This document shows, piece after piece, positions 4,752 through 63,578 of a stretch of DNA of 64,000 nucleotides. Within the stretch, counting starts at the first letter, position 1; the number at the start of each line of letters is the position of its first letter. The notes under the pieces are model-generated. The model did no database searches, was not told the origin of the DNA, and was given only the letters and a program-made list of their open reading frames with translations. A program made the translations under genes and the position numbers. This DNA comes from Octopus vulgaris (taxonomy: Eukaryota), in contig OX597817.1 in assembly GCA_951406725.2 (NCBI GenBank), forward strand, positions 45,012,001-45,076,000, written 5' to 3'.

Positions 4752-5935
4752 CATATGTATGTATGTATGTGTGTATGTATTATGTATGTATGCATGGTAT
4801 ATTATTCTACACCAGCTAGAGTAATTGTGATTTCTGCAGACAGCCAGTGAACAGCTCGCTTTTCTTACCATAATTTTTCTTTATTCTCGTTCCGGTCGTT
4901 GCATCAACGTTCTTCGAGTTTCTCTTACGGTTTCTTCCCATGTTTTCTCATTGACCAGCGTCCTGGTTTTTTAAATGCGTATCAGAGTATGCACCGACCT
5001 GAGAGATTGCATGGAGTTATATAACCTGTTATATAAAGCAGCCAAATTATTGTATCTCACCAGCATGTAACTATTGGTAGCTCTGTTTTAAATTTTGCTC
5101 GTGTGTATATAAATATGTGTGTGTGTGTATGTGTGATGTCAGTTGTGAGGACTCCCACAAGGCCTACTGCTAATATGGCATCTGGTACAAACTATTGTAA
5201 TGTCTATTCGTAGGGAACTAAACAAGCACCAGCAACAGACAAATATTGTGAGGAGGAATGCTAGAATCTCGGTAAGACTAGAAGCAAAGCGACGGATAAA
5301 ACAGTGAGTTTTCAAATGCTGTCCAGGAATAATATTGATACTCAAATATTCCGGCTACGTATCAGGATCAGTGGATTTTAAGCATCACATCATTTTACCA
5401 GAATGTCAAACTGATTATAATACCGGATACTTGAGCCTGTGGCTCATATTGACACAAGGCACGTCGGCTCGGTTTGTCTCTTATATTATGTCAGTAGTGT
5501 GGATGGGGCCTATGAAATATCGTGTAAGCCTTATTGGGAGTAAAATCTTGCACAGGCATTACTTTGCCAGTGACTATCATACACATCGAAGGTTCAATAT
5601 CTATAAATTATAAATGATAATGTATTTATACACACAAATGCACATGCTATTTCGTTGATTAGGCCTATCGCCTATCGCAATCTTGTTTTGCATCAAGGAT
5701 TCTGTGGGAAGTAGTTGTCCAAATATGAATTATATGATTATCTACAAAGGAAAACAAAAGTTTCACATAGACGATAGTGTCTGACAAGTGTTTAGTAACT
5801 CTTTGTGAAAAAATATAGTGTAAAAATATACACAAAATAAGCATAAGATCCCCGAAGTTTCTGTTAAATATATTTTTAACGTAAATACTAAATTATGAAC
5901 ATTTAATGCAGGGATTATTTTGTATGTTATGAAAG

Positions 5936-6100
5936 ACGCAGGAGTGGCTGTGTGGTAAGTAGCCTTCATACCAACCACATGGTCCCGGGTTCAGTCCCAT
6001 TGGGTAACACCTTGGGCAAGTGCCTTCTACTATAGCCTCGGGCCGACCTAAGCCTTGTGAGTGGATTTGGTAAACAGAAACTGAAAGAAGCTCGTCGTAT
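5936..6100 (+). mobile_element. SINE family A, 5' half (tRNA-derived head); interrupted by the PLE
   Basis: GCAGGAGTGGCTGTGTGGTAAG...GGGTTCAGTCCCA (A/B-box-like)...CCTTGGGCAAGTG...GAAACTGAAAGAAG; homologous to 17010-17175. Confidence 0.85.
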
Positions 6101-6111
6101 ATATGTATATG

Positions 6112-6142
<31 letters not shown>

Positions 6143-6293
6143 TGAAATGGATAAATGAATTATCTTGTTACGGATTATTCAAAATTTAACCGATACCTGG
6201 GTAGCAAAAATCACAACAGAAAAAGCACGATTGAGGTTACGACCATGGGGAGTCGCAACCGTGCCTTAGTGCAGATAATTGAAGTTTTATATA

Positions 6294-6696
6294 TTTAGTG
6301 AAGGGAAGAAATGGAGCTGAACGAAGATTCTACAAAATTCCTTTTTTATTATTTTCTACATATGTTTCAAAGGCTGCAAATTTCCAAATTCGGATTGAAT
6401 AAGGATAACATTTTGCAGCTTTCTCTTCAGGAAAATCCAGGAATTTAAATCTCCAAACAAATGCGCAGCAAGCTATTCGAACAAAGCGCTCCCTAGGAGC
6501 CCATGGTATGGCACAAAACTGTCTCTCAATGTGCGTTGACGTCAGGGTGGGTGAAGGCCGACGAAAAAGTCCGTTGGAATAAATCGAGGTCAAACTGCGG
6601 TTAAATTTGGTAGGGGAAGAATTACAGAAAACCAAAGGGTGTGAATATATTCTGTATAACTAATGTTAATGAAAGCTATCTTATTTGGGTGTGAGA
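6294..6696 (-). repeat. Left arm of ~403-bp inverted repeat (inverted pLTR)
   Basis: Reverse complement of 8297-8698 with about 5 differences by eye. The twin ORFs 6330-6635(-) and 8358-8876(+) share near-identical translations. Confidence 0.97.
6351..6436 (-). ncRNA. Type I hammerhead ribozyme (minimal, palindromic stem III)
   Basis: Minus strand reads ATTTTC-CTGAAGA-GAAAGCTGCAAA...TTTGCAGCCTTT-GAAAC-ATAT-GTA-GAAAAT. Stem I is 6 bp, stem II about 11 bp, the cleavage triplet is GUA, and ACATATGT is palindromic. Confidence 0.85.
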
Positions 6697-6750
6697 CAAC
6701 ATTCTGTCATGAGGATAGGGCCGGCTACAATAACATAAATAATTTAAGTA

Positions 6751-7168
6751 GTGAGGAATGTCGAAACAAGTACATCTAGAATAAATTTAGGTAACATAAA
6801 TAATTTGCGGTCCAGGGGAGGCCATAGTAAGCCAAAACCTATTATTCAACCTAGAAATACCCACCTTAATGTCAGAGTTGACTCCCCGACCCAGTACAAA
6901 AACAGGAATAAATATATTTGGTTTGTAATTCCCTTTGGTAAACAAATAAGATCTAATCTACCTCTGCAGTTTCGCCAAGCCATTGCCAGTAATTTTCCCA
7001 GAAATTCCAGGTATTACGCCACTGTTAACTCACACGAAGTTAGGATAGCCTTCTCCAACACTAAAAATCTCTCACAGATAATTTCCTCCCATAACAATAA
7101 GCTGCTAAATAAGACCCTCTTACCCTCGTTCGGTGACGCAGCTCCGTCTAATGCCAGAATAACGCGCA

Positions 7169-7205
<37 letters not shown>

Positions 7206-7989
7206 TAATAGAACCGGCACAGAGATTAGCAATCTCCATACCAGCCATGGAGTTAATAATAGGAATAAGGATAGGAGCAATGGTGACGACACTAACGTTA
7301 GTAATGGTAATAGGGATGAGAGCACTGTCCGAGTCATTAATGTAGAGAGTCCCATTAACACTTTTAGCAACGGTTTTGACAATAGTAGCATTACGGACAT
7401 TAGCAATCACAGTGATCTCAGTGTCAGGGAATATACAGGTGATATTCCATTAAATAGTATTGATAATGGGGTGTATAATGTCGAAGACAGCCGCAGTTCT
7501 CACAATCATCATAGTAATAAGAACGCCGTATTAATATCGGAAGCCAATCCCAATAGAATAAGGTTCTTATCTAGTAATTCCAAGATTAAAAATGCCATTT
7601 ACCAATGCAGAGTTTATACTGAATCAGATGTCTACTTGTATATCGGAGCGTCATCATCAAAATTGGCCGTGAGAATATCGAACCACTTCACAACATTTCG
7701 CGATTTTAGAAAACAACACGCGACCGGACTAAGTAAATTAATCTGGCGTTTGAAGAACGCGAATTCAGCATTTAGACTGGAATGGTCGATTTTATCGGTG
7801 TCTGTACCGTTTGATAGAGGCAAAAGAATCTGTAATCTCTGCAACTCTGAACTTTTTCACATTTTGTTCGCCCGAGGGCAGCTAGTTAACGCGATTTTGC
7901 AAAACTCTTTTAGATGTCCCCACTGGAGGCGGCACACATTTTCTTGCATACAATTGAAGCCTAAGATAATTAACACCTTGATGTCCTAA
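6751..7989 (+). CDS. C-terminal part of PLE polyprotein: post-RT segment, Asn-rich linker, GIY-YIG endonuclease (no in-frame ATG at the start, RT core absent)
   Basis: 412-codon stop-free ORF. RNKYIWFVIPFGKQIRSNL...VRIAFSNTKNLSQIISSHNNKLL resembles the PLE post-RT segment (IIWFNPP...SHNKKIL type). NAIYQCRV..YLYIGASSSKLAVRISNH is the GIY-YIG motif. The end reads LSKLIWRLK...LEWSIL...CNLCNSE...LVN...RCPH. Confidence 0.85.
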
Positions 7990-8296
7990 CAAAAGAAAAA
8001 AATTTAAGAAAAAAGTTTTGGAAAAAATTTGGAAAAAAATTTTGAATTAAATTTGTAAGGGGAAATTACTCCCCTTTTAGCGTATGATCTGCTACTTTTT
8101 TTAGAAACAATATCAGGGATTATACTCCCCTTGTTTGACAAGTCATCTGTATATAAACTGGCCACAGACGAACACACAGATACAGGCTTTTATCAGCCGC
8201 TTGACCAGCAATATCTGCAATATATGTTCCCTCTAGCTGCTTCCTAACATACTGCCACACATACATAGGCGCACACACACATACCTGTAGGTAGTT

Positions 8297-8696
8297 TCTC
8301 ACACCCAAATAAGATAGCTTTCATTAACATTAGTTATACAGAATATATTCACACCCTTTGGTTTTCTGTAATTCTTCCCCTACCAAATTTAACCGCAATT
8401 TGACCTCGATTTATTCCAACGGACTTTTTCGTCGGCCTTCACCCACCCTGACGTCAACGCACATTGAGAGACAGTTTTGTGCCATACCATGGACTCCTAG
8501 GGAGCGCTTTGTTCGAATAGCTTGCTGCGCATTTGTTTGGAGATTTAAATTCCTGGATTTTCCTGAAGAGAAAGCTGCAAAATGTTATCCTTATTCAATC
8601 CGAATTTGGAAATTTGCAGCCTTTGAAACATGTGTAGAAAATAATAAAAAGGAATTTTGTATAATCTTCGTTCAGCTCCATTTCTTCCCTTCACTA

Positions 8697-8698
<2 letters not shown>
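8297..8698 (+). repeat. Right arm of inverted repeat (sense pLTR)
   Basis: Matches 6294-6696 in reverse complement and ends at a (TA)n tract. Confidence 0.97.
8557..8642 (+). ncRNA. Type I hammerhead ribozyme in pLTR
   Basis: ATTTTC-CTGAAGA(8563-8569)-stem II-GAAA(8625-8628)C-ATGT-GTA(8634-8636)-GAAAAT. Confidence 0.83.
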
Positions 8699-8742
<44 letters not shown>

Positions 8743-8754
8743 CATATATATATA

Positions 8755-8978
8755 TGTGTGTGTGTGTGTGTGTATGTTTGTGTGTCTGTTTGTCCCCCCA
8801 GCATCGCTTGACAACCGATGCTGGTGTCTTTCGTCCCAGTAACTTAGCGGTTCGGCAAATGACACCGATAAAATAAGTACTAGGCTTTCAAAGAATAAGT
8901 TCTGGGGTCGATTTGCTCGACTATAAAGGCGGTGCTCAAGCATGGCCGCACTCAAATGACTGAAACAAGTAAAAGAAT
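8755..8978 (+). mobile_element. SINE family A, 3' half
   Basis: TTTGTCCCCC..CATCGCTTGACAACCGATGCTGGTG...ATGACTGAAACAAGTAAAAGA; homologous to 17265-17495. Confidence 0.85.
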
Positions 8979-9492
8979 ATAGAATTCTTGAGGAAGTACT
9001 ACTCATTTAAAGAAAAGAATAATAACGATTTTGTGAAAAGCTCCCTGACATAAGAATGTAAAATGGAGCTGTGAAGCTAGCTAAATACCGGGAATCTATA
9101 AATTCGATGCTTGCGAATGATAATTACAGACATTTAACCAAGCGATTATTAGTATGAAATTCTTGGTATGGTGCTATATTCTTCTTGGGTCGTTGATAAT
9201 AAGTTATATATCGAGACATTTCTTTTGAACAAATGTCTATATGGAATACAGATCCATCAATACATCATATATTTATATATTATATACGACTATGTAATAT
9301 ATGTTTGGATAAATATAAATAAATACCCAGACTCTCAGACAAATATTAATGTTTGTCTATATGTCAAGCTATATTTATAGAGAATTTCAGTATTTTAGAA
9401 TTACTCAATAATTTTTATTATATGTTTATTAAATTTTGCAAAAGGAGTGATTATGTGTTCCTATGTCTTGGCATGCTGTCCTTCTTCGGACT

Positions 9493-10973: not shown

Positions 10974-11397
10974 GGTGGTGAGCTGGTAGAAACGTTAGCA
11001 CACCGAGAGAAATGCTTAGCGGTATTTCGTCTGCCGCTACGTTCTGAGTTCAAATTCCGCCGAGGTCGACTTCGCCTTTCATCCTTTCGGGGGTCGATTA
11101 AATAAGTACCAGTTACGCACTGGGAGTCGATGTAATCGAGTTCATCTGTTTGTCTGTCCTTGTTTGTCCTCTCTGTGTTTAGCCTCTTGTGGGTAGTAAA
11201 GAAATAGGTATTTCGCCTGCCGCTACGTTCTGAGTTCAAATTCCACCGAGGTCGAGTTTGCCTTTCATCTTTTCGGGGTCGATAAATTAAGTACCTGTTA
11301 CGCATTGGGGTCGATGTAATCGACTTAATCCGTTTGTCTGTCCTTGTTTGTTCCCTCTATGTTTAGCCTCCTGTGGGTAATATAGAAATAAAAAAAC
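10974..11397 (+). mobile_element. SINE family B (tRNA-derived, Nin-domain-like), internally duplicated
   Basis: GGTGGTGAGCTGGTAGAA...GAGTTCAAATTCC...GCCTTTCATCCTTTCGGGGTCGAT..AAGTACCAG, with the body present twice. TSD core ACACGCCATCA at 10963-10973 and 11408-11418. Confidence 0.85.
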
Positions 11398-17009: not shown

Positions 17010-17174
17010 AGGCGTAGGAATGGCTGCGTGGTAAGGAGCTTGCTTACGAACCACATAGTTCCAGGTTCAGTCCCACTGCGTAGCACCTTGGGCAAGTGTC
17101 TTCTACTATAGCCTCGAGTCGACCAAAGCATTGTGAGTGGATTTGATAGACAGAAACTGAAAGAAGCCCGTCGT

Positions 17175-17264
<90 letters not shown>

Positions 17265-17495
17265 GTGTGTGTGTGTGTATAAGTTTGTGTGTCTGTGTTT
17301 GTCCCCCTAACATTGCTTGACAATCGATGCTGGTGTGTTTACGTCCCCGTAACTTAGTGGTTCGGCAAAAATGATCGATAGAATAAGTACTAGGCCTACA
17401 AAGAATAAGTCCTGGGGTTGATTTGCTCGACTAAAGGCGGTGCTCCAGCAGCGCTGCAGTCAAGTGATTGAAACGTGTAAAAGAGTAAAAGAGAG
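17010..17495 (+). mobile_element. Full, uninterrupted SINE family A (head-(TA)n/(TG)n-tail)
   Basis: tRNA-like head, central microsatellite and AGTAAAAG tail, with an approximate TSD (aatacccaac / aataaccaac). Confidence 0.88.
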
Positions 17496-20743: not shown

Positions 20744-20791
<48 letters not shown>

Positions 20792-20793
<2 letters not shown>

Positions 20794-21165
20794 TTTTACT
20801 CATTTCAGTCATTTGACTGTGGCCATAATGGACCACCACCTTTAATCGATCAAATCGACCACAGGACCTATTATTTGCCCGCCTAGTACTTATTCTATCG
20901 ATCTCTATTTGGCGAACCTCTAATTTACGGGGACGTTAACACACCAGCATCGGTTGTCAAGCGATATTGGAGGGACAAACACAGACACACAAACATATAT
21001 ACCCACATACATATATATGACGTTTCCGTCTACCAAATCCACTTACAACTCTTTGGTTTCCCGCGGCTACAGTAGAAGACACTTGGCCAAGGTGACACGT
21101 AGTGGGACTGAACTCGGAACTATGTAGTTTGTAAGCAAGCTACTTACTACACAGCCACTCCTACG

Positions 21166-21168
<3 letters not shown>
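20792..21168 (-). mobile_element. SINE family A (short central microsatellite, no insertion)
   Basis: Reverse-complement homology to 17010-17495. Confidence 0.85.
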
Positions 21169-22808: not shown

Positions 22809-23185
22809 ACGTAAGTGTCTACATCTACAGACGAACAATAGACTCTGCCAGACAGAAAATAAACTGCATTTATCGCAGTCCATATCACTCAATCAGGGGT
22901 TACTGACTCATCAACACTAGGATCCCAATATCTCACAAAAGTGTGGGGAAGAAGAAGGGTGCGAATATGAAAAATTAAGTGCATTATTAGTATATACTCC
23001 TTAAAATATACGGCCCGATAGACATATTGTAACCAGCATGTCTCTCTCTCTCTCTCTCCATTTCTGTCTGTCTCTCTCCGTATATATAAAGATATATATT
23101 TATATATATATATATAAGAATTTTTTGCGTAATAAGATAAAAAAAAACAAGGATGTATAGATATTAAAGCATCAATAGCTAGAAT

Positions 23186-26557: not shown

Positions 26558-26775
26558 ACTCTTTTACTCTTTTAATTGTTTCAGTCATTTGACTGCGGAT
26601 CATGCTGGAGCACCGCATTTTAGTGGCGCGAATCGACCCCAGGACCTTTTCTTTGTAAGCCTAGAAATTATTCTATCGATCTCTTTTGCCGAACTGCTAA
26701 GTTACGGGGGACGTAAACACACCAGCATCGGTTGTCAAGCGATGTTGGAGGACAAACACAGACACACAAACACAC

Positions 26776-26819
<44 letters not shown>

Positions 26820-26824
26820 GTATA

Positions 26825-26871
<47 letters not shown>

Positions 26872-27298
26872 ATCAAAATAAAATAAAAACATGATGCGAA
26901 GGATTCAGCGGTACATATGTTTCGGGCCTTTATTAGACAGATTTATAACAAAGCATAATGTATGTCTGTGGCCTTCTTCAGCCGCGCACAACAGCTTCCA
27001 CAAGGACATGTGTTACATCAAAAATTCTTGGTTGGGGATGCAAATCCTCTCGTTCACGTACGACATAATGCGGCAGCAGCATAGAATTGAAGCGTCCATC
27101 TCTTTCTTCTCTCAATGTAGAATCATATATATATATATATACATATATACGATGGGCTTCTTTCAGTTTCCGTCTACCAAATCCACTCAAAAGGCTTTGG
27201 TCGGCCCGAGGGTATAGTAGAAGACACTTTCCCAAAATGCAAAGCAGTGGGACTGAACTCGGAACCTTGTGGTTGGTAATCAATCTGCTTACCACACA
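26558..27298 (-). mobile_element. SINE family A carrying a ~255-bp HHR element (26870-27125) in its TA tract
   Basis: The tail at 26558-26810 and the head at 27148-27298 match 17010-17495 in reverse complement. Confidence 0.85.
26908..26985 (-). ncRNA. Type I hammerhead ribozyme
   Basis: Minus strand reads GCGG-CTGAAGA-AGGCC...GGCCC-GAAAC-ATAT-GTA-CCGC. Stem I is 4 bp, stem II has GGCC/GGCC, and the ACATATGT palindrome is the same as at 6351-6436. Confidence 0.8.
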
Positions 27299-28632
27299 AT
27301 TATTAGTGTTACACTTCAATGATTTATACATTGGTTAGATTTATTTCGACTTAAATTCTGAATTTTTTGAGTATTTTGTTCCAACAAAGTTGGTACCCAT
27401 AGCACTTTCCATGTTATTTATTGCTTCGAAAAATGATGTTATTCTGGTGAATGTAAGACGACAGCACATTTTCTTACATTTTTCCCAGCTGAATACTTTC
27501 ATATCACATTTCTTATAAGCGAAGGCTATACTGGTCACAGAGAATATTGTATTTTTAATAATACCCGATGAAGCGAATACTAGAGAATATTTCACATATT
27601 TTGTTTATAGAGTGTATCGGACACGGAACGAGTTAATTAGGTAGGTCGGTTTGTAGGCTCACGATTTGATATGGTCGAAAGTCAATTCAGCCTATTGTGG
27701 GGTCGGCTCAGCTTACTACTGGAGGCAAATAAGCACCCAAATCTTACACACAAACCTTCACATATACACATGTAAGCAAGTGCGTGCATATTTTCGTTTT
27801 CAATAATTGAGATACCACTCTAAGTACTAGTTTTTGTAGCAAAATATAAAGAAATATAAGCCGCCGGTCCCGTGTTTTTGGGAAGAAGAAAAAAAGCAAT
27901 TGGCTCATTTCCCTCATCTTGAAGCGCATGGAATCACAAAGACAAAATTTCTATGGGAAGAGACGGCTGCATTACTTCTGATTTTATTTAATCTCAATAT
28001 AGTAGACAAGAAGATAGTGGATTAGGAACCGAACCATTAAACTTGTGATCATATGAAGAAGAACTTAAAACAGTTGGTCATATGCCTCTCTATAGTAATA
28101 CAAGAGTACACCAATGCATGCATATACAAATATATACCGAATTGTAAGTGCACCACTCTTCACTCTCTCGTAAACAAAGCTAAGTATACAAACTCATCAA
28201 TCAATTGCATATTTGAAACGGACAAGCACATAAGCACGCATACACCTCTCTCACACAGATACCCACTCAAGTAACTTATTTATTCAAGTTTCTTTGTTAG
28301 AAGGCACACCGCCCGTGACTGAGGCAGTGATGCAGAAGAATTTAGCAACCTTGGTCGCATTCCGACTTTATATTGTGTTTCTTAATTTAAAAGACCATAA
28401 CGAATCGTAAAATAGAAAATGAACGAACAAAAGTTTGTCACAATTTTGACATTACCACATTGCATTCTCTACAATAAATAATTCGAGCAGGATTCTGCCA
28501 TTTATTTCTGAACCAGCTGACGGTCAGTTACATCTTCAGTGTTGAATCTGTGTGATAAAATTCGACATATTCTCTACGTGCTATATTTCTGTATTTTCAT
28601 CGTTAACGCACTAAACAAAAACAACAGCAGCA

Positions 28633-28634
28633 AT

Positions 28635-28665
<31 letters not shown>

Positions 28666-28950
28666 CCACCATCGTCATGGTCATCATCATCATCATCGTC
28701 ATCGTCATCGTCATCATCGTCATCATCATCATCATCAAAATCATCATCATCATTATCGTCGTGGTCATCATCATCATCATCATCATCGTCATCATCATCA
28801 TCATTATCATCACCATCATCATCTTCATCATCATCATCGACATCGTCATCGTCATCGTCATCATCATCATCATCATCATCGTCGTTGTCGTCGTGGTCAT
28901 CATCGTCGTCGTCGTCGTGGTCATCATCATCATCAACAACAGCAACAACA
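28633..28950. repeat. Degenerate (CAT/CGT)n trinucleotide microsatellite
   Basis: About 320 bp of ATC/GTC repeats, giving the poly-I, poly-M and poly-D ORFs. Confidence 0.97.
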
Positions 28951-29199
28951 ATACGGGCAGCAATCGCTACAAGAAATACAGTTACCAAGTAAGAGTAATA
29001 GTTGTTAAAGAATGCAGATAGAACTTCAACAGTATTCATAACGACTCGTGAAGGAAACCTTAGTGTGGTTTCACAATTTATTAGACATAGAAGCAACATT
29101 TATTCGAATAATACTAATCCATTCTGAGTTGTATAAGGAAGCAATGTGGACCTATATAAAGATAAAAGACAGGATAATCCCCGCTGGAAAATCATCGAC

Positions 29200-32273: not shown

Positions 32274-32688
32274 AGACGGCGAGCTGGCAGAACCTTTAGC
32301 ACGCCGGGTAAAATGCTTTGCGGTATTTCGTCTGCCGTTACGTTCTGAGTTCAAATTCCGCCGAGGTCGACTTTGCCTTTCATCCATTCGGGGTCGATAA
32401 ATTAAGTACCATTTATGCACTTGAGTCAAAATAATCGACTTAATCCCTTTGTCTATCCTTGTTTGTCTCTCTATGTTTAGCCCCTTGTGGGCAATAAAGA
32501 AATAAGAAACGTTAGTACACAGGGCGAAGAGCTTAGCGGTATTTTGTGATTTTACGTTCTGAGTACAATTTGCGCCGAGGTCGACTTTGCCTTTCATCCG
32601 TTCAGTACCAGTTGCGTACTCGAGTCAATCTAATCGACTGGCCCCTCCCCTGAAATTTTGGGCCTTGTGCCTAGTGTAGAAAAGAATA
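32274..32688 (+). mobile_element. SINE family B, dimeric
   Basis: High similarity to 10974-11397. Confidence 0.85.
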
Positions 32689-34056
32689 TGTAAAATAATC
32701 ACACGGCACATTCAATACTGTGAGGTACGTGTAATTATAACAACTTCATAATGGATTCGTAATTAGTATGAAGTGAAAGGAAACAGATGTATTTCTGTTG
32801 CAATGTACTTGATTTGAGAACTGTTCAATTTCGTGGTATTCATTAGAAGATGTATTATGTCGGGAAAAATGTTTTTTTACATAGACGACTAAGTTGCTTG
32901 TATGAAGTATGGAACAGGTTTTTTTTTGTGTATCAGCAGTATTTCATTGTCAGCTACCCACGAATATTTCAGATGATAAGCAAGTTATCGTGTAAGAAAT
33001 ATCTGATTGCCAGAGGTCTTATGCTCGCTCTGAACTTGCTAATGTTTCATGTGTAAAGTTGCCATTTATGATTAACAATGATTCTGAGACAGCAATTTCT
33101 AGCATCTTTTAGTTGAGTATTTTTTATGAGTAAACACATAATGTAATGGTTTTGTTATTTTCTATATGTATCTGTGGATTGTCACCCGTTGAATAATAAT
33201 GCATTTATTATCTCCAATGTCGAGGATGTTTACGAGATATTTGTTGATATAAGCAATGGTGTGTTTGTCATGTGTTGATTAGCATGTGGATAATGCCATT
33301 GTGCGGAAGAACAAATAGGTGACATACGGGTTATATGTGCGTGTGATTGTGTGACGTCGTAATAGTTTGATAGTCATTCCTATAATCATCTGCCTTATGT
33401 TTTATCTGATTGCAAACGGTGATTGCCTACTTAGTCATATAATGTCTGATTTATATAGATGTTGAAGTAAGGTATTTCTTTGAGAAGAATGTTTATAGAG
33501 TCCAGGAACAACAAATTCTGTACTAAATGCCTTAATATCAAATATAGGAATATTGCTCGATATCCCATTTTCAACAGACCTTTCCACTTAGCTACAATTT
33601 ACATTTATAGCAACATGATGATAAAACATGTGATGGCTTGTCTTATGGACATTTTTCAATTCATCTTGTAAGTATCAGTGATAGTATCTGCTCTGAATTT
33701 GTTTGTGCAGATAATTCTGCTTTTTAGTGCCAAATATTTATCCAATATTTTTTCTTTTAAAGAGGTCTCCACGTTTTGGAAAGGGATCAGTTAATTATAT
33801 TTAACTTATAGGATTAGAATTTACGACAATGTTATCCATCGTAAGCAATGTGTATATATACATTCTGTTATTTGTTTCAAGTATTTGACAGCGGTCATGC
33901 AGGAGCACCGCCTTTAGTCGAACATATCCACCTCAGGACTTAGCTTTTGTAAGCCTGGTACTTATTCTCTCACTAAGTTACGGGGTCGTAAACAGACCAG
34001 CATCGGTTGTCAAGCGATGGTGGGGGACAAACAAACATACACACACACACATATAC

Positions 34057-34129
<73 letters not shown>

Positions 34130-34134
34130 TATAT

Positions 34135-34696
34135 TTATATTGTATAGAGGGCATTATTACACATAAATGCCTCACGCTAAGAGGGACATAAGTCATTACT
34201 ACCAAAATTTAACTAATCATACCCAATGCAGCTCCCGAAGCAAGACATTTAAAAAACTGAATTTAGTTCTATATCACCTGTGATTTCACAATTAACGTAT
34301 CAAATACGTATTTTGTTCATCAGTAGAACAGATTCTGAACACATCATAAATAAACAATCAACATACCTAGCGAAGCCAAACAGACATCTGCTCCCCTCGG
34401 CGAAGCACATGGAAATGTTTATTCATCATATATTCGGTAAATGGCGGGCTCTTTCGAACTGCATGTCGGTAGGAAAAGTTTTTCTTCGGAATAAATTTAA
34501 CAATTAAGGATAAAATCTTAATAAGGAATCTTAACAAGAAATTATCAGGTATTTAGCGTGAAAAACCTTATAAGAGAAAAAATTCGAAAATAATTTTTTC
34601 ACTTGAAAATATTTACTTATATTGTATAGAGGACATTATTACACATAAATGCCTCACGCTAAGAGGGGCATAAGTCATTACTACCAAAATTTAACT
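34135..34696 (-). mobile_element. Non-coding 482-bp unit with 80-bp terminal direct repeats and a hammerhead (retrozyme-like or non-autonomous PLE)
   Basis: 34135-34214 is repeated at 34617-34696 with 2 mismatches. It contains an internal HHR, has no credible ORF, and is flanked by TA sequence. Confidence 0.75.
34266..34329 (-). ncRNA. Type I hammerhead ribozyme, canonical core
   Basis: Minus strand reads GTTCTA-CTGATGA-ACAA..ACGTAT-TTG-ATACGT..TTGT-GAAATCAC-AG-GTGATA-TAGAAC. Stem I is a perfect 6 bp, stem II is two helices, stem III is ATCAC/GTGAT, and the triplet is AUA. Confidence 0.92.
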
Positions 34697-35779
34697 CAGT
34701 TCGAATGTATATATATATATACATATATACGACGGGTTTCTTTCAGTTTTCGTCTACCAAATCGACTCACAAGGCTTTGGTCGGCCCGAGGCTATAGCAG
34801 AAGAAACTTGCCCAAAGTGTCACGCAGTGCGACTAGACCTGGAACTATGTGGCTGGTAAGCAAACTACTTACCACACATCCACTCCTACGTGCACGTTTA
34901 TATATTCACATTGACATTCATATACGTTCATCGGTGTGAGTGTATGTATGGCTATATGTGGATATGTGTGTGTGTGTGTGTGTGAGTGTGTGCGTGTGTG
35001 CGTGTGTGTGTGTGTATATGTGCGTGATTATATATTCATAGTTGTCAATGTGTGTCAATGAAGTCTTTCAGTGACTGATAGATATTTTCAAATCATAGCA
35101 GAAACATGGAGAGAAATTGATGGTAGGTTACATATTAACATCCCATATTATTTCGTGTCTTTCATTCAATCTGGGTTTTCAAATAACTGTGTGTCTGAGT
35201 AGGTTATTTCGCCAATATTAGTAATACACGCACTGATTCGATATAATTTATATAATGTTAGTCAATTGATTAAATATCTAACCGACTAGTTAATCGAAAG
35301 CATGTTTAATGTGCTGGTGAAAAAAATCAATCGATTGTTACTTTGTCAAATTCCTTTCGTCGCTGTTCGCAGCATCATCAAGGGCATGCCCTCTCTCTTG
35401 AAGGTCTGCGTACTTTTTTTCTGTATGAATAATCGTGTATGAACGTCGAAATATTCCTTTGAAATATATATTAACGCAAATAGCTTTGGAAACATATCAT
35501 ATATTCTTGGTATTATCTGCATTTCGTTGAAGTCAACAACCTGGTAGCATCGATCGCACGATAAACTGCCTAGGGCCATTTTGTCAGGCTATACATTTCA
35601 GTTAAAAGTGTGATGAAGTAAGCTTTGCATTTCATCATTTCGGTGTCGATAAAACAAAATATGAGTCAAGTACTGGCATAGATGGAATCGACTGATCCAT
35701 TCCTCCAACATTTCAGAGACATGTGCGTTTAGTAGTAGCGATCATTATGCATTTGGTTCCTTAAGGAAAATATGTGACA

Positions 35780-37682: not shown

Positions 37683-40600
37683 AACAGCCACACATGTATA
37701 TGCGTGTGTATAGTTAATTTTCCTTTTGATTGTGTATGTTTTTATACATGCGAGTTTTATAGTTATTTGTAAACATGTGCGTCTCCCTTTTAAGTGTCGA
37801 CAGGCATATATTTAGAACAGCACAATTTTAAAAGTAAATATATTTTGAATATATTTCACTATTGTCTTTAATGCGTGTATTTCTAATTTGGTCATAACGA
37901 AGTAACAAATTATAATTCTCCATAATAAAATGGTCAATCAGATGCGAAGTTATAATGAGTAATTATTTCAATGGTATTTTATCTCTGTAATTTTGTTTGA
38001 AAATATGAATACATTGTTAGCAAATATCAATACTAAAGAATAAATTGGAAATTTTTAATCGATATACATTTGTTTCATTAGGAAAGATATGGAAATATAT
38101 TTGTAATAACGTTATATATGATATTTGATTATATTCCTATATTCAGGCACGATATTCATCCATAAATGCAATTGAAATTTAAAGTACAGATATGTTAATG
38201 GGAATCCGTTGGTTTCTTCTACCGAATAAAAAAGCTTACTAAATTATATAGCATGTGAGCAGTTGAGTAACTTAATAATCAGGCAGAATTGCCTCCGCGC
38301 TGTCTGAGATAAAGGCGTACATTTGAACTACATGGACTCTTATTCCGATGGACTACATTCGAAAGGATCTGCATTTACCAAACTTTCACAGAAAGACTGC
38401 ATGGGCTGTTTAGAGATTGACATAGGAATATTTAGATGAAAATTTGGCGGATCGAACCTTGTAAATTATGATTACAAGAAGAAATTCTTAACTACGCGGT
38501 TACGCCTGTTATTTTGCTTGGCTACGTTTCTCTTTATACGAGCACATTATTTTTTTCGCGCATGCATTTAGACACACACACACATAAACACACATACACA
38601 AACACGCACATACCCACACACAAACACACTTACAGAAAACACACGCGCGCATACATACATATATGCACACACACACACACACACGCACACGCACACAAGT
38701 GTGTGTATGTGTGTACGGAGTCTCAGCTAAGAATACTAATCAAAATATTTTGGAAGTATTTTCAGCTCTAATGCTGTCCGTCAAATATAATATAATGAAT
38801 ATATTTGCAAAATATATGCGTTATACTGCTGAGATGTACAAGGTGAACAGTGAAACCATTGTAATTGATAAGACCATTGATATTTGAAAGAAGAACCTTT
38901 TACTTTGTTTAACTGAGAGCGTTTAACAATTGTAATTAGCTTTTCAGGTTATGGAATTATGCGTAATTACAAGGACAAGTTTGGTGAAAGGGAACGGTTG
39001 ACCAGGGAGCGTCTGTTGCTGGAATTGTTCTTTATTTTATTACATCAGCTGGATGCAAAACAGGGCTGATCTCTCCGCAATTCGAACTAAGAATGTAAAG
39101 TGTCTGAACAAATACAGTAATCATTCAAACACCACTAACAAATTTCATATGTACTTAGATACTTACTACTACTAAGTAATTGAAAAGACATTTTTCTTAT
39201 ATGAAACTTGGCAAATTATATTTGAGATTATGTAAGTGTGATACGTGAATGCCCTTATCTAAGACTAGCATATCCTCGGTGAAGTGTATAGGAATCAAAC
39301 GAAAACTACAGTAGCTTCGTAAAATAGGATTCTCCGGAATATTGGAGTTATCCTACCGCACTAACCATAGAACTGTACCATATTATACATCGGGGGGACG
39401 TTTTGGTGCTTCAGAACCTCTTCTTGGTATTCTAATTGTTTCAAATTATTTTTTTAAGGCTGCAGTATTTTATATCAAAACTGTATGAGAGCACACGACT
39501 CTATAGCCTTTTATAAAATTAATTTTCCACGTACACAACGACTAAGCTACCACATGGTAATTAAATTGTCAGCAAAGTAGAAGATGGCTACACTTGGGGT
39601 CGTGATGTATGCGAATCTGTGACATAGAACGGTCAACGTCAGTTCCACAAATATAAGCACCCATTAAGTAACATAATTAGGAAACTAATAACGATTAACA
39701 CTATCGTAGCAGTTGTGGTGACGTCAGTGAATGTTCCTTATCCAAACATAAAGAAAATATATAAATGAATATAAAGAATTTCGAAGTATGAATTTAAAAA
39801 GAAAACTGTAGAAATTTGTTTGGATTCAGAAACATTATATGCGATTTTCTTGTAATATTTCTGAAGATATTTCAAGCGTAGATGGATTAAATTAAGTTGG
39901 TTTTATCGTTGATTTTATCACGATATTTGTTATTGAGGTTGTTGTGGTTGTTGACATATTTATATGTGTATATATTTTTATTTTGCTCACTTTTTAGAGA
40001 TATCGTCTTAATACTAATGGTATATTATTGGAAGATCACAGAAATGTTTAATCAATGGAACATTCAGTGGAATCATTCCTCGTCTCCATTTGTGAAACTT
40101 TCTTAGAAGGATTAGAATTTTCGATCGTTGCAAATAAAATCGATAAACAGTTTAGAACTGATATGACACGAAATAACAAACGAAAAAAAACAAAAACACA
40201 AACAAACAAAAGAAGAAAGGAAATACAAATGAGACGTAATTAAATAACAGAACAGTGCGTTATATTTTTTGTTTGTTTTCATCTCAAATAATGATTTTTT
40301 AAAAATTTTGCATTCATTTTCAATAAAGTTACCAAAGAAATATTGGTCATCATAATTGAATATTGTTAATGACAATGATGTTCAATTAATTAAGGATTTT
40401 AATTAGTTACTGCTCCATAATTAGCTGATATTCTGTCGATGATATTTCTAAATGACAAAATTGATGCGTTCTATGAAGTTTCGAGTAAAATGTTAGAATA
40501 TCCTTCATTGCGTGGTTACATAACTTACAGTGACTTCGTACAACCAACTTGAATAAACAGCATAGAACTGTCGTTTTTTGGTAATTTATTGCTACGAAAA

Positions 40601-55858: not shown

Positions 55859-56930
<1,072 letters not shown>

Positions 56931-57479
56931 TGTGTGTGTGTGTGCTTTGTGTTTGTGTGTATGTGTGTCTGCGTGGGTGTGTGCACATGTTTGTATGTGT
57001 GTTGTGTATGTGTCTATACTTATATTTCTATAGACATGTATATTGTTGATGAAACCAGAATTCAGTTGCGGGTGGTCTGCGTGTGCGAGACATGAATTAT
57101 TTCGTAATAGGGAGAGAAACTACAGTAAAATTGTACCAAGATTAGGGTACCAAACAATTAAGATATAGTTCTTCTTCAGGGTTCGGATGACAGGAAAAAA
57201 AAATGAAAACTTCCAGGCTCCCGATCATTTGTTTGAGCGCTAGGCTGAAACTGATGGGGAACGGAAGGTAATGAGCTTGTTTACGTGAAGCTCAAGTTGT
57301 AAAAAATATGAAGTAAATGAGAGGAAGAGAGAAAATAAAAAGTAAAAGGGAAGAACGGTGTGGAGGAGGCTGAGATGGAAGGACAAATTCAGGTGAGAGA
57401 GAAACTAAGAGATATAAAAAGGGAGTTACTGAACTGAGTTTGGGCTGAGGAATAGAAAGAAACAATTTTATTTATGAAA

Positions 57480-61596: not shown

Positions 61597-63438
61597 GTAT
61601 GTATGTTTATATATATTTATATATGTATACATGTATGTACGTATGTATGTGTACGTTACGCTGTAACGCGCTGTCGTCTGACGAAGTGACAATATCACAA
61701 TTAAAATGGCTTGAAGATATATCTTTTATGCACGTGCAGAATTATGGAAGAGTGAAATGTCTGCTAGGGATGTGACTGAATAGAATTGAACGTGAGAATG
61801 GCGTAGACTTTTTTTGAGAATGTAAAATGTAATTGTAAGATTGAAAAAAAAGAAAGAATGACAATAATAAGCAAAATAAATTAAGCAAAATGCAATGAAA
61901 AAGACTGCTATAAAACTAATTCAAATGAAATGGAATTATATGAGTTACACAAACAAATATACGTATAGACACATGATTCAGACGATGAATTATTGTTATA
62001 TACTAATATGCAAAATTGATTGCTACGTGCTTCTTTGGGATTTACGGAAAACCATTGAGGAAGCTTCAATTGATTGACTTACAGCACCTTCAATAGATGG
62101 ACCCTGGTATATTTAGTATGGACGGCAGAAGGTTGCTAGTATTGATACGGGTTGTTTCTTAATCATTTAAGAAGTATGTTTGAGTTCTAATGGTAGTTGG
62201 TTTAAATGCAAATTCCAATATTAATATTGTTAAGTGAAATTTGTTGATATTAAAATTTGAGATTTCAGATCCATGCAATCAATTTCAAGTGCAGGCTTTG
62301 CTTATTAGAAAAAATGCATATATTATTCAAAGACAATAATTCTTTGAATCAAAGAAGTGAATTAATGAACTTATGTAGGCACAAGGCTAAATTTAAAATG
62401 TCGAATATAAATATACCATATGGATAGAGTATATATTTTGTATTTTGATTTTTTGATTTTGATTTTGACTCTTGAGCGCTACAACGGACCTATAGCAAAG
62501 TCTTATTGTTTCTACATATATATTAGGAAAAACCTACAAACTTTGTTTTCATGTTATTGTATTGCATAAGATTACCTTGATTATTTATATTACCTTGATT
62601 ATTTATAAATGACCCAAAATAGGATGTTATATTTTATTTTATAGGTCTTTCGTATATATTTTTATTAATGCACCCATTTTTTAAAAGCAATGTTTTTTTA
62701 TAAAAAAAGCAATGTTGTCAAATTTAGAATGTTTATATAAGTTTGTGTATAGCAAAGCATATGTATTTGTAAGCATGCGTATCTGTGTATGTGTGAGTGA
62801 AAGTATGCTTGTGCTTAAGCACACATATACACGACGGTATGTATATGTATCAATTCAAACTTGTGTATGTATACAGGCCTCTATAGATGCCAAATAACAT
62901 CGCTACAAATTTTTTTCCCCACCCCTCCTCCGTTCCTTTTTCTCTCTTTCCCTTTCTTTCGTTCCCCCTCCTTGCTCAGTATATGAGAATTGCTACATAG
63001 ATGAATTTTAGCTTGCGTGCGAGACGGTTTGCGTGAATATATGTACACATGCTTTTATGTGTATAATTTAGATTCATATTCATACGTCTGTATATGTATG
63101 TATGGCGTTTACGCGCATCCTTTTGTGTATGTTGATATATATATGTGGATTTTAATATAAATATGTATTGCAGTATTCATAACAGGTTTAATTTCTATGC
63201 ATTAATTTGTACTGTCTTCATTAACGGCAACAGGTTTTTTCCTCGGTATTTTCCTCGGATTTTATAATTTTTATAAGTTTTTATATATATATACATATAT
63301 TTTTGACCTTTTTGTTTATCGCTCGAAGATTGACCGTTTTTTCTAAAGGGCCAATCAAACAAGTCCATTTCTTTTTAAAGGTGTAGCGTTTGTAAGAGTA
63401 TAGATTGAATTAATATATATGTTCCATTCTAGCAAAAA

Positions 63439-63476
63439 CTGTCTGATGAACGGCAACGAGAAACTCAGAGTAACAG
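63439..63476 (+). ncRNA. Minimal type I hammerhead near the end of a PLE-like 3' terminus (~63220-63580) abutting (TA)n
   Basis: CTGT-CTGATGA-ACG-GCAA-CGA-GAAACTCAGAGTA-ACAG. Stem I is CTGT/ACAG, stem II is a short GCAA tetraloop with an A.A closing mismatch, and the triplet is GUA. Confidence 0.75.
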
Positions 63477-63578
63477 ATTTTGTTGATTTTTCTGCTGCTT
63501 AAAATAAAGCATATTACTCTACCACTGGTATTTGAGTACTCTTTTTTCCACCTTGTTTCACATTTATGTGTTTACTCC

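Follow-up and report, generated by a model that had tools for sequence, protein, structure and literature searches.

A 64,000-nucleotide stretch of the Octopus vulgaris genome (assembly GCA_951406725.2, contig OX597817.1, positions 45,012,001 to 45,076,000, hereafter the window) contains, at positions 6294 to 8698, a long open reading frame (ORF) for a GIY-YIG endonuclease (EN) enclosed by two inverted repeats, each of which carries a hammerhead ribozyme motif. A preliminary description of the locus, made from the letters alone, saw in it an endonuclease-only cassette of a Penelope-like element (PLE) that lacks the reverse transcriptase (RT) core. The features of the locus, listed below with the positions of the window, make it very probable that it is a dead, fairly recent, 5′-truncated Hydra-like Penelope insertion with an inverted pseudo-long terminal repeat (pLTR).

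5934 to 6100, plus strand: left half of a dispersed repeat resembling a short interspersed element (SINE), the landing site; the window has six further matches, at 73-86% identity.
6126 to 6142, plus strand: C(AT)8, a candidate for the left target-site duplication, within the (TA)n at the centre of the repeat; identical over 17 nt to 8699-8715, which counts as weak evidence in microsatellite.
6143 to 6293, minus strand: unique 151-bp segment outside the left arm, absent from five other two-half copies of the repeat and without any other match in the window.
6294 to 6696, minus strand: left arm, an inverted copy of the element 3′ end (inverted pLTR), 98.8% identical to the reverse complement of 8297-8698.
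6351 to 6436, minus strand: type I hammerhead motif of the left arm (C3 6430, G12 6368, cleavage base A 6357), from a descriptor search.
6697 to 6750, plus strand: first coding remnant beyond the truncation, in a frame other than that of the long ORF; 85% identity to residues 103-122 of the relative P0002.
6748 to 7989, plus strand: stop-free remainder of the RT-EN ORF, 413 codons with no Met before residue 412.
6913 to 7113, plus strand: thumb-side conserved block (IWF..P..N..F..FP..N..S..N..II..HN of Hydra-type proteins), from tblastn, alignment with RT-bearing relatives and comparison by eye with Fig. S7 of PMC8557442.
7114 to 7593, plus strand: Asn-rich linker replacing the CxCX5C zinc-finger-like linker; 160 aa, 22.5% Asn, no Cys.
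7594 to 7947, plus strand: GIY-YIG endonuclease, Hydra-type by its motifs (Y285, Y298-I-G300, R309, H313, CxxC 362-365, E368, N381, CxH 390-392), without a Cys pair between GIY and YIG.
7990 to 8296, plus strand: 3′ untranslated region without a duplicate in the left arm; elsewhere only microsatellite matches.
8297 to 8698, plus strand: right arm, the element 3′ end (pLTR region), from the arm comparison; the end of the relative P0007 matches inside it.
8449 to 8456, no strand: TGACGTCA palindrome (cAMP response element, CRE), with a mirror copy at 6537-6544.
8557 to 8642, plus strand: type I hammerhead motif of the right arm (C3 8563, G12 8625, cleavage base A 8636), from a descriptor search.
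8699 to 8981, plus strand: what is left of the (TA)n target, with the candidate right duplication at 8699-8715, followed by the right half of the SINE-like repeat at 8775-8981; five other matches at 74-85% identity.

The left arm of 403 nt and the right arm of 402 nt differ at five positions, namely four substitutions (left-arm positions 6330, 6361, 6500 and 6595) and one indel (6342), in agreement with the count of about five given earlier. Their divergence of 1.2% makes the proposed youth of the insertion reasonable, as an uncalibrated figure. Three of the four substitutions are A/G in the sense of the pLTR, an outcome expected by chance one time in eight, and could hint at a trace of adenosine-to-inosine editing; three transitions are too few to say more. 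The window, which is free of N, holds a single copy of the element. A blastn match at 23056-23116 was considered as a further copy and rejected as microsatellite only. A derivation of the arm itself from the RT thumb, raised by a weak translated match (E 0.018), was likewise dismissed, given that 61 of 500 shuffles scored equally well in a profile test.

Between the arms, the frame at 6748-7989 runs from stop to stop over 413 codons, or 412 when counted from GTG 6751, against a longest frame of 187 codons in 2000 base shuffles. The stop-free GIY-YIG ORF that had been reported is therefore real, as is the predicted GIY-YIG fold of its product; its first and only Met is residue 412. The absence of the RT core from the window also stands: tblastn with ten RT-side queries returned one weak match, at 6904-7029, which falls in the thumb-side block. 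A frameshift lies near 6750, about 50 nt past the 6696/6697 junction between left arm and coding sequence, and roughly 120 residues of RT-thumb-side sequence stand ahead of the linker.

A homologue search of 1.84 billion representatives gave 2233 matches at E ≤0.001, and the comparisons reported here rest on the best 150 of these, with 155 proteins compared in all. The RT catalytic motif is present in 34 of the 155, the longest of which carry RWK and DKT (full-length examples are P0006, P0025 and P0037). These two motifs, without IFD, mark the N-terminal part of the RT in the Hydra clade, a part that the focal copy and every retrieved member of its lineage lack. The best relative of the focal ORF, P0002, is a gene model from Octopus sinensis. 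Its residues 1-102 correspond to RT motif 7 and thumb, with 36-42% identity to RT-bearing Hydra-type proteins (the seven best of 61 other matches); residues 103-122 match 6696-6755 of the window at 85%, and residues 125-324 match 6751-7368 at 89% in another frame. Because P0002 runs from RT motif 7 and thumb across the junction, the junction falls in the middle of an ORF and the copy is 5′-truncated. What was described as an endonuclease-only cassette is thus the remainder of a longer protein, in which thumb-side residues precede the linker and the coding sequence once continued upstream into the RT. Overall, the locus combines an RT-then-EN ORF cut at its 5′ end, an inverted copy of the 3′ end at the 5′ junction and a pLTR with a hammerhead motif, as is the case in 5′-truncated, EN-containing PLEs with an inverted pLTR. 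The order of EN followed by pLTR recurs in another copy, the last 23 residues of P0007 matching 8396-8464 at 70%.

Precedents for this layout are plentiful. Section 6 of PMC8557442 presents an inverted, 5′-truncated copy at the 5′ end as the typical PLE layout, so that the earlier remark that truncated PLEs often gain an inverted pLTR is borne out in print. Penelope-13_HM, a Hydra-clade element of Hydra magnipapillata, has an inverted 5′ copy and a hammerhead listed on both strands (Files S1 and S2 of the same paper); its inverted part is 966 nt long, and it belongs to another host and family, the comparison being one of descriptions only. Opposite-strand hammerhead pairs are noted in PMC4209133, where most dispersed motifs are ascribed to truncated PLEs. 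In the rotifer Adineta vaga, the passages of PMC3846280 on Pen2, Pen2a, Pen3 and Pen4 describe truncated Penelope copies with inverted pLTRs and an optional tail on one arm, as at the focal locus, together with in-frame Asn-rich inserts (25-30% Asn) that separate RT from EN or RT core from thumb; these inserts are 460-554 aa long, the tails measure about 31 bp, and loss of the linker finger is absent from those passages. The hammerhead-bearing pLTR without RT is shared with the non-LTR retrozymes, which are tandem, direct and non-coding (10.64898/2026.07.22.740005), whereas at the focal locus the arms are inverted, a remnant of an ORF is present and there is no evidence of amplification. The likeness to DNA transposons with terminal inverted repeats (TIRs), an ORF between inverted repeats, is superficial: a DDE transposase is missing, the arms duplicate the 3′ end of a retroelement, ribozyme included, and the arm ends are not flanked by a duplication. 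It is worth pointing out that a standard Penelope-type product of this kind is a trap for annotators tempted to call a TIR transposon.

The last 130 residues of the ORF yield a structure model with pLDDT 87.2 and pTM 0.79, whose best structural matches are the catalytic domain of I-TevI (Z 9.1, root-mean-square deviation 2.4 over 89 residues) and T4 EndoII (Z 8.3). Other comparisons are in line with this or silent. Foldseek of the EN against the PDB returned nothing at E ≤0.001, its top rows being GIY-YIG enzymes at E 0.05-0.2; Pfam assigned no family to the whole ORF, and GIY-YIG to the EN part at E 0.034, below the cut-off; look-alikes in the ESM Atlas reached 0.94-0.96, one set having GIY-YIG in 11% of its members, and contributed no information on host range. 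The single match of a PDB sequence search (E 0.79) was put down to chance. In a 61-row alignment, Y285, Y298, G300, R309, H313, C362, C365 and E368 are near-invariant.

The sections of PMC8557442 that define the Hydra clade give as its marks a C-terminal EN without CCHH, CxxC and CxH motifs around the catalytic E and N, a hammerhead and a (TA)n target. The focal element has a C-terminal EN (the domain order being taken from P0002) without CCHH, a single Cys lying between GIY and YIG; it has C362/C365, E368, N381 and C390/H392; it carries a canonical hammerhead near its 3′ end, and it is inserted into (TA)n, a property seen in one insertion. What is missing is the CxCX5C linker ahead of the EN, as residues 123-282 contain no Cys. 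Judged by its motifs, the endonuclease appears to be Hydra-type, and the element is best filed as a Hydra-like variant rather than as a member of Hydra, because the finger is a defining feature of that clade. Naiad was rejected, since the EN is C-terminal and not N-terminal, the CCHH and CX2-5CxxC fingers are absent and a canonical hammerhead is present; Neptune, Nematis and Penelope-Poseidon were rejected because the CCHH motif, which places two Cys within the GIY-YIG core, is lacking, by the criteria given in PMC8557442. All three placements that had been offered, Naiad, Neptune and Poseidon, therefore fail on domain order or CCHH.

Within octopuses, Hydra-1_Obim from Octopus bimaculoides (Craig et al. 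2021, PMC8557442) offers a published Hydra-clade comparison. It shares with the focal element the C-terminal GIY-YIG without CCHH, the CxxC and CxH motifs, the thumb-side IWF block, the canonical 3′ ctgaagag hammerhead and the (TA)n target. It keeps, however, the CxCX5C finger (CSCRIRNEC) that the focal linker lacks. The focal family, unlike Hydra-1_Obim, has low-complexity inserts of about 60-75 aa after the thumb helices and about 130 aa before the EN, and a longer hammerhead stem II; its full length is estimated at near 3.5 kb or more, against less than 3 kb. Comparison by eye of linker and hammerhead flanks indicates that the two families are distinct.

The loss of the finger is not a peculiarity of one decayed copy. 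The pattern CxC-x(4-9)-C is present in the linker of 119 of 140 measurable EN-bearing matches; four of the 21 negative matches belong to the focal lineage, and most of the others still show remnants of the Cys or have the look of faulty gene models. The distance from HN to IY is 167 aa in the focal ORF; the median is 35 for the 88 proteins whose pattern allows the measurement. Towards the EN, the linker ends in a conserved Cys-free segment that is identical at 25 of 27 positions in P0007 and at 21 of 27 in P0008, two gene models of the same family on other O. sinensis contigs, with the Asn-rich insert being less conserved (85 of 121 and 18 of 51 residues, respectively). In a midpoint-rooted EN tree of 125 columns, built from 71 of 153 usable rows (all 26 that are finger-less or short, and the 45 best-ranked with a finger), the query, seven labelled relatives and P0139 form one branch of nine rows with support 100/99; beyond the query and two named relatives, the branch comprises P0009, P0012, P0014, P0049, P0139 and P0148. 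The tree holds Hydra-type rows only, the retrieved sequences including no reference protein of Neptune, Nematis, Poseidon or Naiad; Hydra-1_Obim and further published consensus sequences lie outside it and were matched against the focal element by eye. Across a well-supported clade, the CxCX5C linker zinc finger is lost and an Asn-rich insert stands in its place.

This finger-less lineage was not found in the literature searches made or in the parts of the PMC8557442 supplement that were covered; it may be catalogued in Repbase, in Dfam or among the O. vulgaris repeats of PMC13282606. The zinc-finger-like EN linker has been tied to (TA)n targeting, as a hypothesis put forward in PMC8557442. 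We regard it as an even bet that an octopus Hydra-like PLE lineage without the linker finger still targets (TA)n, which is far likelier than an amplified arm-EN-arm unit. If true, a finger-less lineage that lands in (TA)n would test the idea that the finger drives microsatellite targeting, a matter which one insertion cannot settle. P0002, P0007 and P0008 are degenerate retroelement copies that have entered annotation as if they belonged to the host ('myb-like protein I', 'kinase dyrk1' and 'DDB_G0288805-like'), mislabels that are probably due to the Asn-rich inserts.

The presence of one hammerhead motif per arm, both facing outward, is confirmed. A strict descriptor matched twice in the window and never in 30 shuffles, and a relaxed descriptor four times, with one match in 50 shuffles. 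Rfam reports no hammerhead in the window, with 0 matches at the gathering score and none among the 26 obtained when E was allowed to reach 10, and the call therefore rests on the descriptor and on likeness to published PLE hammerheads. The two motifs are built alike: stem I measures 6 bp, stem II is long, and helix III is minimal and palindromic, forming a perfect 8-nt palindrome in the left arm that is changed by one A-to-G in the right. The core, ctgaagag, is that of Hydra-1_Obim, and the motif ends 62 nt from the element terminus.

Whether transcripts from either strand could self-cleave, as had been suggested, is doubtful. Minimum free energy folds did not yield the hammerhead (z -1.8 and -2.0), whose fold is worth -12.9 kcal/mol against -16.6 kcal/mol for the lowest-energy fold. 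Hammerheads with a minimal helix III are thought to act as dimers, and a single minimal PLE hammerhead was not cleaved in vitro, according to the relevant passages of PMC4209133; the hammerhead of an anole PLE needed protein and was dispensable for insertion (PMC11167929). Any one transcript of the focal locus carries a single sense hammerhead, and read-through RNA also carries its antisense upstream. Cleavage of read-through RNA from the locus is unlikely, because the arm duplex (-732 kcal/mol) and the pairing of the hammerhead segment with its antisense (-143 kcal/mol) outweigh the hammerhead fold. The duplex of about 400 bp on read-through that was foreseen is thus energetically certain; rather than accompanying self-cleavage, it speaks against it.

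The palindrome TGACGTCA is indeed perfect in each arm, at 6537 and 8449, which amounts to one duplicated site and is unremarkable. The 8-mer is expected 0.005 times per arm and 0.79 times per window, a third copy lies outside the element at 39719, and as a motif chosen post hoc it is one of three perfect 8-nt palindromes in the arm. P0007 reads PGAN where the focal copy reads PDVN, which excludes the exact 8-mer there if the frame is colinear. By these comparisons the CRE is probably incidental, a single duplicated site that was apparently not kept in P0007.

A plausible history of the locus would begin with an RT-EN protein from an autonomous copy elsewhere, which would nick the (TA)n tract within the SINE-like repeat and prime reverse transcription there on element RNA, starting from its 3′ end. 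Synthesis would have halted after about 2.0 kb, at 6697, within an insert just past the RT thumb helices, and a second priming or a template jump would then have copied that 3′ end again, the other way round, over about 0.4 kb (0.55 kb if the tail is counted). Long inverted arms with one hammerhead each would result, since the 3′ end normally bears one hammerhead. The junction at 6696/6697 would presumably be unique to this insertion. With no AUG, a frameshift and outward-facing pLTRs, the locus should yield no protein by ordinary initiation. Its read-through RNA would form a 400-bp stem that buries the ribozyme, presumably leaving it inactive, and could feed small interfering RNA (siRNA) or editing pathways; in transgenic Drosophila, siRNAs map to the inverted regions of rearranged Penelope copies, as reported in the pertinent part of PMC3681739.

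Several observations weigh against a simple truncation. P0002 is itself broken, with its frame lost ahead of the EN, and it is the only one of the three named octopus relatives to span the junction, P0007 and P0008 both beginning downstream of it. No member of the focal lineage among the best 150 of the 2233 matches has an RT catalytic core, and the recovery of full-length relatives that had been proposed as a check did not succeed: none of 4568 longer candidates (>723 aa) is a full-length RT-EN protein of the lineage, although this search was a weak one, in which the 727-aa P0025 was overlooked too. A frame of 1.24 kb that remains open, its catalytic residues intact, would likewise be compatible with selection; youth accounts for it as well. 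The open frame and the lack of a full-length member can also be read in favour of an RT-less, non-autonomous arm-EN-arm unit that is copied as such, either by a full-length PLE acting in trans or, by means of its inverted arms, in the manner of a DNA element; such a unit would have retained the cis-acting 3′ end, and non-autonomous PLE derivatives and mobilisation in trans are known (MRC1 in PMC8557442, the non-ribosomal peptide synthetase (NRPS) case in PMC3846280, and 10.64898/2026.07.22.740005, each in the passages concerned). However, it would have to do without an AUG and with a frameshifted 5′ remnant, its junction lies inside coding sequence that leads into the RT in P0002, one copy is present in 64 kb, and a literature search for RT-less non-autonomous Penelope elements gave no matching paper. 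GIY-YIG nickases are not known to act as transposases. We consider such a unit improbable, and the same goes for the more elaborate proposal that it is amplified in trans while its zinc-finger-less EN, translated from a spliced or non-AUG start, nicks at (TA)n. Of the two options left side by side in the preliminary description, the one-off truncation is thus supported by P0002, in which RT residues take the place of the left arm, and the propagating RT-less unit has no positive evidence.

An element that works through its RNA, as a host-useful or selfish source of self-cleaved ends or hairpin small RNAs driven by the CRE, would make sense of the near-perfect 400-bp stem, of the intact hammerhead core in both arms, of the AATAAA at 8643 directly past the cleavage site and of the low expectation for the CRE. 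Yet a single duplicated sequence accounts for both CREs and both ribozymes; the CRE is post hoc, recurs outside the element and seems changed in P0007; and a helix III of minimal size needs a partner that a transcript with one sense copy does not supply, quite apart from the inactivity of the single minimal PLE hammerhead in vitro (PMC4209133), the protein requirement of the anole one (PMC11167929) and a hammerhead fold that is not the most stable. This makes a functional RNA very unlikely. Finally, the inverted arm could have originated after insertion, by inversion-duplication or repair, or as an assembly artefact, in view of the microsatellite-rich surroundings and of the trouble that PLE repeats cause in assemblies (noted in PMC8557442); with arms that differ at five positions and share the element terminus, a window without N and a layout that is the standard PLE product, this is hardly credible. 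The 5′-truncated insertion with an inverted pLTR remains the best account of the locus.

The landing site is a dispersed repeat that is called SINE-like here for its A/B-box-like motifs; ARAGORN finds no tRNA in it. The insert bounds given earlier, 6294 to 8698, are real as arm ends; the insertion itself may extend leftwards as far as 6143. No exact duplication flanks the arm boundaries at 6294/8698; an insert taken as 6143-8698 has the exact 17-nt flanking duplication C(AT)8, which accounts for the C at 8699, bearing in mind that duplications within microsatellites are weak evidence. The minus strand of the 151-bp segment at 6143-6293 folds at z -2.7. A long asymmetric tail of the inverted copy is somewhat favoured for this segment over an earlier independent insertion, and it is longer than the optional tail of 30-40 bp published for one end of PLEs. 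The TATA-box-like string TATATAAAA at 6288-6296 (minus strand) is reached reading outward from the left arm, before the 151-bp segment. A similar string in Adineta pLTRs was proposed as a promoter in the corresponding passage of PMC3846280; here, it may equally be target microsatellite.

Runs of TA of at least five units cover 4.2% of the window. The repeat is present in six two-half copies (5934-8981, 17010-17487, 20787-21168, 26565-27298, 33859-34891 and 55925-56932), and its central (TA)n contains an insert in four of the six, the focal one included, and microsatellite alone in the other two. The (TA)n tract of the repeat is a landing pad for PLE-type insertions, three of the four inserts having hammerhead motifs. 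The insert at 26870-27125 (minus strand, 256 bp) has a hammerhead with C3 at 26981 and cleavage base at 26912. In helix III this hammerhead repeats the 8-nt palindrome of the focal left arm; the insert shows no other similarity to that arm and is probably the 3′ end of another PLE family. The insert at 34127-34705 (minus strand, 579 bp), with 88-bp direct repeats of 95% identity and a hammerhead with C3 at 34323, looks like a small non-autonomous PLE or a retrozyme-like unit. The insert at 56345-56628 ends in a hairpin with 54-bp paired arms (56472-56628), and the hammerhead descriptor has no match in it.

Further PLE-like features are found elsewhere in the window. A C-terminal fragment of a second Hydra-type EN lies at 62281-62420 (plus strand; CxxC, E, N and CxH, best E 7e-10), followed about 1 kb downstream by a minimal hammerhead-like motif at 63437-63490 (plus strand), recognised by eye and missed by the descriptor, and by (TA)n at about 63580; together, the features at 62281-63490 appear to form a separate truncated PLE. 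A weak match to a profile of Hydra-type RT motif 7 and thumb at 26091-25864 (minus strand, 11.5 bits, E 0.0097) may be what remains of an old, decayed PLE. A second dispersed repeat with an internal tandem duplication occurs at 10977-11395 and 32278-32639, and an imperfect trinucleotide-type array occupies 28556-28989.

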